Positions 6,555 through 7,376 of a stretch of DNA of 8,488 nucleotides are shown piece after piece (position 1 is the first letter of the stretch; each line of letters opens with the position of its first letter). Made by a program: the position numbers and the translations under genes. The stretch is from a virus (lineage: Duplodnaviria; Heunggongvirae; Uroviricota; Caudoviricetes), in the IMG/VR virus record IMGVR_UViG_2531839449_000010, positions 1-8,488 of that record. The stretch is one strand, 5' to 3'. The notes beneath the pieces were generated by a model. It saw only the letters and a program-made list of their open reading frames with translations. It searched no databases and was not told the DNA's origin.

Positions 6555-7376
6555 TCACACTGAGAACGTGCCGATGAAGGTTAAGATATCTTCTTCTTCG
6601 AAACGCTCTTTCAGCAGGTCACGGAACTCTTTGGCAATTTCTTCTTCCGCAGCTTCAACACGCACGATACGTAGCACCAGAACAGGCTGTTCGCTTGTCA
6701 GAATGCTTAATCGCAGCGTGAATTCCCTGTTGCCCAGGCCCTCGTATGGGATGCATTCAAAGCGGAAAGTGGCAGGCATGATTTCTTTGCTTTTAGCCTC
6801 CACGGACTCCATGACTGAGCGGCTACCGCTGAAGTTTTGCTCTTCATATTCAGCACTGCGTTTTGCATCGATGGTAAGACGACGGACAGCAGAGATAGCC
6901 TGTTTGATGTCCAGCACATTACCGTCGCTGTCATAGGCTGTGAGGAAGTCGGCCCAGTCTTCCAGCCATTCAGCGAGAGACTTCTGGAGTTGTTTTTTGC
7001 CGTCAACGTCACGCAATGCGCGATATGGTGATGTGGCTTTCAGTTCCAGCAGTGCCTTGTTGTCAGCGTGTCCAGGTTGCTCCAGAGTGCCGATATTGAA
7101 CACAGTGACTGCTTTCATCGTTTCCGCGTTAATGAAGCAGCGGGAGTGCTCATCGGCATACCCTTTGCTGTATTCAACAAAGTCATCAATACTGGTTGTG
7201 GTCATGACTCCACGGAAACGAAAACGTTCTGTCATGAATCGTTCCAGACTTTCGATATTTACATTGTCCGGCAATAACGCAACAGGGCATTCCGTAAGCG
7301 GCAAATTTTCACCAGAAAAAGCAGTAGTGGTGAGTTTTACAATTTCTTTAATGGCATTGCTATCTAACTGAGACAT
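6555..7376 (-). CDS. DUF2303 / YfdQ-like prophage protein (273 aa)
   Basis: Complete ORF starting MSQLDSNAIKEIVKLTTTAF..., which I tentatively recognise as the YfdQ (CPS-53 prophage) family. That is recall, not a search. Weak AAAGG Shine-Dalgarno upstream. Confidence 0.5.
   Translation of the reverse strand: MSQLDSNAIKEIVKLTTTAFSGENLPLTECPVALLPDNVNIESLERFMTERFRFRGVMTTTSIDDFVEYSKGYADEHSRCFINAETMKAVTVFNIGTLEQPGHADNKALLELKATSPYRALRDVDGKKQLQKSLAEWLEDWADFLTAYDSDGNVLDIKQAISAVRRLTIDAKRSAEYEEQNFSGSRSVMESVEAKSKEIMPATFRFECIPYEGLGNREFTLRLSILTSEQPVLVLRIVRVEAAEEEIAKEFRDLLKERFEEEDILTFIGTFSV

Follow-up and report, generated by a model that had tools for sequence, protein, structure and literature searches.

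A yfdP–yfdQ two-gene cassette as the conserved unit around a DUF2303 gene in a Shiga-toxin-type prophage segment

Genes at the locus

In this study, the surroundings of a DUF2303 gene were investigated in an 8,488-bp stretch of viral DNA (Caudoviricetes; IMG/VR record IMGVR_UViG_2531839449_000010, positions 1 to 8,488), which is called the window hereafter. Nearly every real gene of the window lies on the minus strand, and the window is the early-left (pL) accessory region of a lambdoid, Shiga-toxin (Stx)-type prophage of Escherichia coli. The DUF2303 gene is a homologue of yfdQ and is preceded by a yfdP-like gene; with a probability of about 95%, the cassette of these two genes (7440-7787 and 6555-7376) is the only evolutionarily conserved unit in the window. 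Sequenced Stx phages carry identical, annotated genes and a yfdP–yfdQ(–yfdR) cluster is already in the literature, and the feature is therefore already known, though uncharacterised. Both genes were stated to "have no known function", the pair was noted as common in lambdoid early-left operons, and the cluster of phage ArgO145 was explicitly mentioned (PMC12315714). New here are the quantitative demonstration that the obligate unit is yfdP plus yfdQ alone, the recognition of two other genes as independent cargo, one of them a relocated NinC, the finding that the copy in the window is orphaned by insertion sequences (IS), and structural leads that can be tested. The cassette consists of the following features:

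6555..7376, minus strand: yfdQ-like gene of 273 amino acids (aa), DUF2303/PF10065, phrog_210, assigned by Pfam and PHROG matches
7377..7439, minus strand: yfdP–yfdQ spacer of 63 nucleotides (nt) with the yfdQ ribosome-binding site AAAGG, read from the sequence
7440..7787, minus strand: yfdP-like gene of 115 aa, phrog_204, Pfam PF27127, upstream partner of yfdQ, assigned by family match

The initial annotation, made from the letters alone, had named 6555-7376 a DUF2303/YfdQ-like gene, and the family searches bear this out. PF10065 matched residues 27-271 of the product (E 1.6e-65; 221.5 bits against a cut-off of 26.6) and 24-269 of the 269 profile positions were covered, which makes the protein a full-length member; the match to phrog_210 had an E-value of 3.8e-113. 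The YfdQ family comprises 2,345 clusters at 50% identity. Its top 150 representatives at that identity measure 212-288 aa, with one matched stretch in all but one, and the window protein, at 273 aa, is likewise a single-domain protein of the typical length (~265-290 aa). The gene starts with ATG downstream of its ribosome-binding site. In the yfdP–yfdQ spacer, a scan detected no terminator, and a promoter-like site that overlaps it (7464-7435, minus strand) is ordinary, with 9/12 consensus matches. In Acinetobacter phage 4316 (L111, 4001-4850), the annotation splits the DUF2303 gene into two overlapping coding sequences, reflecting a frameshift or a sequencing error.

Membership of the upstream gene in the YfdP family was established by its profile match (phrog_204, E 1.3e-44) and by its position directly upstream of the DUF2303 gene; the PF27127 tag is carried by an identical protein (P0121). 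Some records label YfdP homologues "translation elongation factor (GTPases)" (ACLAME 760; Xanthomonas phage MET23-P3; L194, 2192-2539; P0173). Neither the 115-aa sequence nor its model supports an elongation factor GTPase, and the label looks like a propagated mis-annotation.

Conservation of the yfdP–yfdQ pair

In total, 111 DUF2303 loci were compared, namely, the best-scoring 80 viral contigs and 25 species genomes, five annotated loci (four phages and one E. coli prophage) and the window. At 80% YfdQ identity the loci fell into 30 clusters, which came from Enterobacterales, Vibrio, Pseudomonas, Xanthomonas, Marinobacterium, Methylibium and other Burkholderiales. Genes in the collected loci were called with a simple heuristic that takes the longest open reading frame (ORF).

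A YfdP-family gene was found directly upstream of DUF2303, on the same strand and with a gap of 6-66 nt, in 108/111 loci; two of the three others lie at a contig edge and the third is an artefact of longest-ORF calling. The reverse comparison used 80 loci seeded with a five-sequence YfdP alignment: 74 had DUF2303 downstream, six were contig ends and none lacked it. The most divergent members found retained the arrangement, with a YfdP homologue directly upstream in Acinetobacter phage 4316 (32% identity, E 3e-36) and in Klebsiella phage ST13-OXA48phi12.2 (25% identity, E 6e-12). Pairwise identities of YfdP and YfdQ co-vary (r = 0.87, 351 pairs), the two families are of similar size (908 vs 932 clusters at 90% identity), and 50,697 phage records contained 182 YfdQ and 169 YfdP matches with nearly superimposable counts per taxon. 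The two genes are transcribed together and co-inherited across phages of Gamma- and Betaproteobacteria.

Profile–profile comparison showed no homology between YfdP and YfdQ, which excludes shared ancestry as far as this method reaches. Two proteins considered as domain-fusion evidence for the linkage were set aside as rare in-frame deletion products from metagenome and Logan assemblies: in P0245, YfdP residues 1-53 run directly into YfdQ at about residue 46, and in P0002 an Ea22-like C-terminus follows YfdQ residues 1-229. Both show that the region is deletion-prone.

The two genes outside the unit

The initial annotation had further proposed that four genes, the 147-aa gene, DUF2303, the 115-aa gene and a PAPS-reductase-like gene, may form a functional module if they co-occur across prophages. 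Two of them lie downstream of the cassette:

6035..6478, minus strand: 147-aa gene, phrog_1363 (E 2.4e-64), outside the unit, restricted to the Stx-phage lineage
5049..5927, minus strand: PAPS-reductase-like PP-loop gene, homologue of λ Nin290 (NinC), outside the unit

The descriptive parts of that proposal were correct. Both flanks of the DUF2303 gene are real phage genes on the same strand, and both are richer in AT, with GC contents of 40.8% (7440-7787) and 39.4% (6035-6478) against 48.1% for the DUF2303 gene and 47.4% for the segment between the insertion sequences. Across the family, the median GC difference between the YfdP and YfdQ genes is -0.005; the YfdP gene is thus not systematically lower in GC, and its low value is therefore specific to the lineage of the window. 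The downstream gene is PAPS-reductase-like as described (Pfam PF01507 PAPS_reduct, E 1.9e-8, 35 bits against a cut-off of 22.5; phrog_424, E 8.6e-93).

The module itself is almost certainly not a unit. Its four genes are contiguous and co-oriented, and the 2-kb arrangement recurs with at least 90% nucleotide identity in 126 of 5426 complete E. coli genomes, many of them enterohaemorrhagic strains (O145, O103, O26, O111); however, this recurrence represents a single phage lineage and not independent co-occurrence. Beyond the lineage, the 147-aa gene occurred in 1/30 DUF2303 clusters and the PAPS-like gene in 4/30, at positions varying from +2 to +4. Each is also found without the pair, the latter in λ (as NinC) and the former in PPompW and Evi, Rac/Qin-like phages in which its homologues lie beside dicA, ydfC, kil and recE, and the pair is found without either gene. 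The close relative PhiR12_3 has the pair and no PAPS-like gene; PAPS-like homologues were present in 584 phage records, and λ was absent among the YfdQ matches listed (60 of 182 records). The expectation that DUF2303 has conserved neighbours thus held for the 115-aa gene (108/111) and failed for the 147-aa and PAPS-like genes. In the neighbourhood analysis these two vary freely beside DUF2303, the outcome named beforehand as contradicting a module, and the 115-aa gene does not. They are independent mosaic cargo. The gene that precedes yfdP in intact relatives, of 195 aa and phrog_743, was likewise found in 1/30 clusters.

The PAPS-like protein is NinC-like, being 79.9% identical to λ Nin290 over residues 5-292 (80% over 288 aa) and sharing the N-terminal PP-loop/PAPS_reduct domain. 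λ NinC is encoded in the nin region of pR, whereas the homologue in the window has been relocated to the pL region and its neighbours are not NinB or NinD homologues. One GenBank record calls the 147-aa gene a "NinB homolog", for which BLAST gave no support, and comparison ruled out the 67-aa ORF next to the PAPS-like gene as a NinD homologue. This ORF (phrog_1226, 4849-5052, minus strand) overlaps the PAPS-like gene by 4 nt, which suggests translational coupling. The NinC-like protein gave weak PADLOC matches to the PP-loop domains of SspD, DndC and BrxP, its N-terminal PP-loop region matching the defence protein SspD with E 9e-15. Over its first ~55 residues, the 147-aa protein matches four other PHROG families (phrog_9419, 2151, 6937 and 33007) at their N-termini, a pattern suggesting that this part may be a shuffled module.

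In the Stx-type phages ArgO145, TL-2011c, P13374, VT2phi_272 and PA8, YfdQ is 100%, YfdP 98-100% and the 147-aa protein 90-99% identical to the proteins of the window. The candidate "system" is thus narrowed from four genes to two, which offers a clean minimal unit to experimenters.

Structural features of the two proteins

YfdQ of the window is acidic (isoelectric point (pI) 4.76, net charge about -15 per monomer), as are the proteins throughout the family (median pI 4.87). All of its conserved polar residues, E45, R51, R55, H103, Q131, E139-D140-W141, R165 and R222, are present in the window protein, and each is kept in at least 90% of 147 representatives that are 33-48% identical to it. The AlphaFold2 (AF2) model has a mean predicted local distance difference test score (pLDDT) of 80.5 and comprises an N-terminal helix, a linker and two α/β domains. 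The linker is poorly defined yet conserved and bears R51-x-R-F-R55-G, and a conserved loop (residues 172-191) has a pLDDT below 50.

In the AF2 model of YfdP (pLDDT 89.6), a long N-terminal helix spans residues 8-38 and is accompanied by a three-stranded antiparallel sheet and a flexible C-terminal tail. Within the tail lies a Q-[L/M]-F motif at residues 102-104, here part of QGQLF (residues 100-104; window 7476-7490). Among 114 homologues, Q102 was kept in 95/114, L or M at 103 in 107/114 and F or L at 104 in 114/114, whereas the tail around the motif is variable in sequence and low in pLDDT. Enterobacterial and Vibrio tails read QGQ[L/M]F; the first Q (position 100) was present in only 52/114 homologues. 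Peptides that bind the β sliding clamp follow the consensus QL[SD]LF or Qxx[LM]F. The YfdP tail resembles this consensus and may serve as a lead.

Fold searches with both models returned no informative PDB neighbour; the fold library covered releases up to 2026-04-08, and entry 9o7m was not among its entries. This entry, titled "YfdQ Protein", has a Xanthomonas phage CP2-like sequence of 274 aa that matches the family profile with E 3.3e-89, and it contains 36 chains. It belongs to the same family as the window YfdQ over the full length, and the window protein shares 37% identity with the related CP2 ORF37. A large homo-oligomer is suggested. No YfdP homologue was found in PDB. NCBIfam had no match for YfdP or YfdQ, and PADLOC-DB 2.0, which covers defence and not anti-defence systems, had none for YfdQ, YfdP or the 147-aa protein. 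An RNase H-like/DEDD exonuclease fold with conserved catalytic carboxylates was not found. A literature search with 9O7M, PF10065, PF27127 and the PHROG identifiers returned no papers.

Another possibility is that YfdQ binds to DNA inside the virion, enters the cell together with the genome and protects it, like T4 gp2. Mass spectrometry of caesium chloride (CsCl)-purified virions of Burkholderia phage JC1 identified five unique peptides of the DUF2303 protein gp10, for which the authors proposed DNA association or DNA-end protection (PMC9144972). However, a low-abundance detection of this kind can be carry-over, and at every locus examined the gene was placed within an early or replication module and not within a late structural one; in JC1 itself gp10 belongs to the replication and repair module, with RecT and YqaJ domains at gp5 and gp6 (PMC9144972). 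Entry 9o7m was also considered as part of a CP2-type virion map and rejected, since the CP2 capsid and portal are without near-identical PDB entries; it does not stem from a CP2-like virion reconstruction. A virion role is very unlikely on this evidence.

Neighbouring genes and proposed function

In temperate phages, the pair is located between the CI-type repressor and xis/int. In phages outside the lambdoid CPS-53 type described below, it lies among genes for single-strand DNA-binding protein (SSB), exonuclease, Erf/RecT, DNA polymerase I and DUF2800/DUF2815. The pair is expressed from early operons. In Acinetobacter phage 4316, it is placed between DUF2800/DUF2815 and a DNA polymerase I gene with a phage β-clamp-like gene.

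The λ Red/Gam, RecET and Erf modules are early accessory DNA-metabolism genes of the same operon as the pair and are immediately adjacent to it in several phages. They have no sequence or fold similarity to the pair, which co-occurs with them and does not replace them. This comparison bears on whether the cassette is a hidden single-strand annealing system that takes the place of Red, RecET or Erf where a phage has no Rec module. The pair is indeed carried by LLS- and ST64B-type phages without a recognised recombinase, and it adjoins exonuclease and SSB genes in several phages. Nevertheless, it coexists with complete Rec modules (gam-recT-exo in the window lineage, Erf and exo in CP2, RecT/YqaJ in JC1), and searches against the annealing recombinases (Redβ/RecT, Erf, Rad52/Sak, Sak4, gp2.5) gave no Pfam, PHROG, NCBIfam or PDB-fold match for the pair. 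A published comparison of the Casjens type judged yfdP and yfdQ unlikely to be hidden recombinases because ArgO145 also has a full Rec module (PMC12315714). This explanation is highly improbable.

The best-known relative is yfdP-yfdQ-yfdR-yfdS-yfdT of the E. coli K-12 prophage CPS-53 (KpLE1), with copies in phages cdtI, SfIV, ST64B and LLS. The homologous pair has the same order and orientation there, YfdQ and YfdP of the window being 53% and 58% identical to those of phage cdtI, and in both types the early-left operon carries the pair downstream of the CI repressor. Unlike the CPS-53 type, the window lineage has no HD-domain YfdR at +1 but the 147-aa phrog_1363 gene and the NinC-like gene, and its pair follows a complete gam-recT-exo set and the 195-aa gene annotated as SSB. 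The published CPS-53 phenotypes concern yfdQRST and not yfdP–yfdQ. Multicopy yfdQ, yfdR and yfdS or yfdT inhibits initiation at oriC in K-12; yfdQ is required and its role is unclear, whereas YfdR binds DnaA domain I (PMC4776307). Sensitivity of yfdQ deletants to methyl methanesulfonate (MMS) and H2O2 is given as a cited result in the same paper (PMC4776307). According to a preprint, overproduced YfdQ causes another prophage to form plaques. The Grad-seq and Ea22 papers cite the Noguchi paper and add nothing further.

These phenotypes raise the question of a host replication-initiation inhibitor, in which the unit would be yfdP-yfdQ-yfdR, DnaA-dependent firing of oriC would be stopped, and the window would hold a degenerate version without the HD effector. 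The multicopy block and the YfdR–DnaA contact agree with it, and an HD-domain YfdR-like deoxynucleoside monophosphate (dNMP) phosphatase is the commonest further neighbour, at +1 or +2 in 17/30 clusters (10/121 neighbour proteins scanned). However, YfdR is absent in 13/30 clusters, including the window and all Vibrio, Pseudomonas and Xanthomonas loci, and the pair persists there. Moreover, pull-downs revealed no high-affinity binding of YfdQ, YfdS or YfdT to DnaA or YfdR, and deletion was silent (PMC4776307). Such an inhibitor is accordingly improbable.

We favour the reading that the products of yfdP and yfdQ act together on DNA replication or recombination in early lytic growth, to which a probability of roughly 35% is given. 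This reading draws on the conservation and co-divergence of the pair, its neighbours in DNA metabolism (including the JC1 module and the YfdR-like phosphatase), the K-12 multicopy block, the cited MMS and H2O2 sensitivity, the detection of gp10 in JC1 virions, the 36 chains of 9o7m and the tail motif. YfdP and YfdQ would form a complex. The acidic YfdQ of ~270 aa would be the assembling subunit and serve as an oligomeric scaffold, its one solved homologue being deposited with 36 chains; the smaller YfdP would act as an adaptor whose flexible C-terminal tail may dock onto a partner through its Q-[L/M]-F peptide. The cassette would then act on DNA replication or recombination and would not be a metabolic or defence system; candidate roles are the modulation of the host or phage replisome and the binding and protection of DNA intermediates.

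Several points weigh against this reading. YfdQ is acidic (pI 4.8), which is unusual for a DNA binder, and a location in the early-left operon suits anti-defence or host-takeover genes equally well. The loci sampled were all from Proteobacteria, with a bias toward this group and toward the best-scoring matches. The presence of a full Rec module in ArgO145 speaks against a hidden recombinase function of the pair, as described above. In K-12, the replication phenotype is an overexpression effect for which plasmid-borne yfdP is not needed, and deletion of yfdQRST has no replication phenotype (PMC4776307).

A bolder and improbable version would make yfdP–yfdQ an unrecognised phage replisome-targeting module, with YfdQ as a large novel-fold homo-oligomer that YfdP, through its Qxx[L/M]F-like tail peptide, would tether to a universally conserved host replication protein, for example the β sliding clamp. 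If true, temperate and lytic phages of Proteobacteria could throttle or redirect DNA replication with it, and it would explain the multicopy block in K-12, the sensitivity of yfdQ deletants to MMS and H2O2, and why the pair is constantly found next to SSB, exonuclease and polymerase genes.

The main rival to an action on replication or recombination is an anti-defence protein or host-nuclease inhibitor, in which the acidic, oligomeric YfdQ together with YfdP would sequester or mimic a substrate, like Gam, Abc2 or Ocr. Such a role would account for the place of the pair among early accessory genes, where it adjoins takeover genes of the gam/kil type in the early-left operon. The pI of 4.76 and net charge of about -15 per monomer, the deposition of a YfdQ homologue as a large oligomer, the wide yet dispensable occurrence in phages with and without Rec modules, and a novel fold, which is common among anti-defence proteins, all fit this role. 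Against it, the family is large and length-constrained (2345 clusters) and ranges from Vibrio to Burkholderiales, whereas most anti-defence proteins are narrower, and the lineage of the window already encodes GamL. In Bobay et al. (2013), as cited in later work, lambdoid prophages without a recognisable recombinase were all scored as also lacking a recognisable Gam or Abc2 homologue, a scoring by homology that does not address inhibition of RecBCD by YfdPQ. The lack of a PADLOC match for the pair points the same way, in a library of defence and not anti-defence systems. We consider this role unlikely, albeit less so than the other alternatives.

The yfdP–yfdQ pair is among the most widespread early-gene cassettes of phages without known function, and it occurs in Shiga-toxin phages. 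The copy in the window is itself ordinary; the family as a whole is a worthwhile open problem.

Setting of the segment between two IS1203 copies

The remaining features of the window are as follows:

172..772, minus strand: second, inverted copy of IS1203, 100% complementary over 601 nt to the copy at 7888-8488
724-1326, minus strand: truncated MT-A70 methyltransferase, ended by the left IS1203 after residue 185 of 208
3312-3860 and 3857-4969, minus strand: two adjacent Ead/Ea22-like genes, Pfam PF13935 (E 1e-10 and 2e-14, respectively)
7862..7887, minus strand: remnant of the 195-aa gene (last seven codons and stop, ...QYGSDSF*), compared with L001 13963-14550
7888..8488, plus strand: IS1203 copy (IS3 family), whose orfA (7942-8268) points away from yfdP

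The inverted IS1203 arms enclose a 7.1-kb prophage segment, and one gene is truncated at each junction: the MT-A70 gene on the left and, on the right, the 195-aa gene, which is cut down to its final seven codons. The family of the latter (phrog_743) is labelled single-strand DNA-binding protein in PHROGs and named DUF669 by PGAP in some genomes. In an intact relative (L001), the early-left order is CI-type repressor, Rha, ORF6N, kil, gamL, recT and λ-type exonuclease, followed by the 195-aa gene, the 115-aa gene, DUF2303 and the 147-aa gene, and then by the PAPS-like gene, Ea22 paralogs, MT-A70, xis and int. The Stx-phage genomes compared above are likewise intact, whereas the segment in the window is bracketed by inverted IS1203 and cut from pL. 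IS1203 thus separates yfdP–yfdQ from the pL promoter, gam-recT-exo and the 195-aa gene. The scan found three promoter-like sites where shuffled sequence averaged 4.6, which is therefore no more than chance, and neither promoter nor terminator sites exceeded those of shuffled sequence. The yfdP–yfdQ copy in the window is probably silent.

The left IS1203 junction was in no complete E. coli genome of the collection, and the query for the right junction was covered to at least 80% in only two, each time as two pieces. The bracket has the appearance of an inversion mediated by the IS or of a composite-transposon-like structure. The truncated MT-A70 gene matches the PADLOC Type II methyltransferase model (E 2e-83), with its C-terminal 23 residues lost at the IS junction. 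Orphan methylases of phages, such as MT-A70, are usually interpreted as anti-restriction. The mechanically called 370-aa ORF at 3857-4969 (minus strand) probably has an over-extended start.

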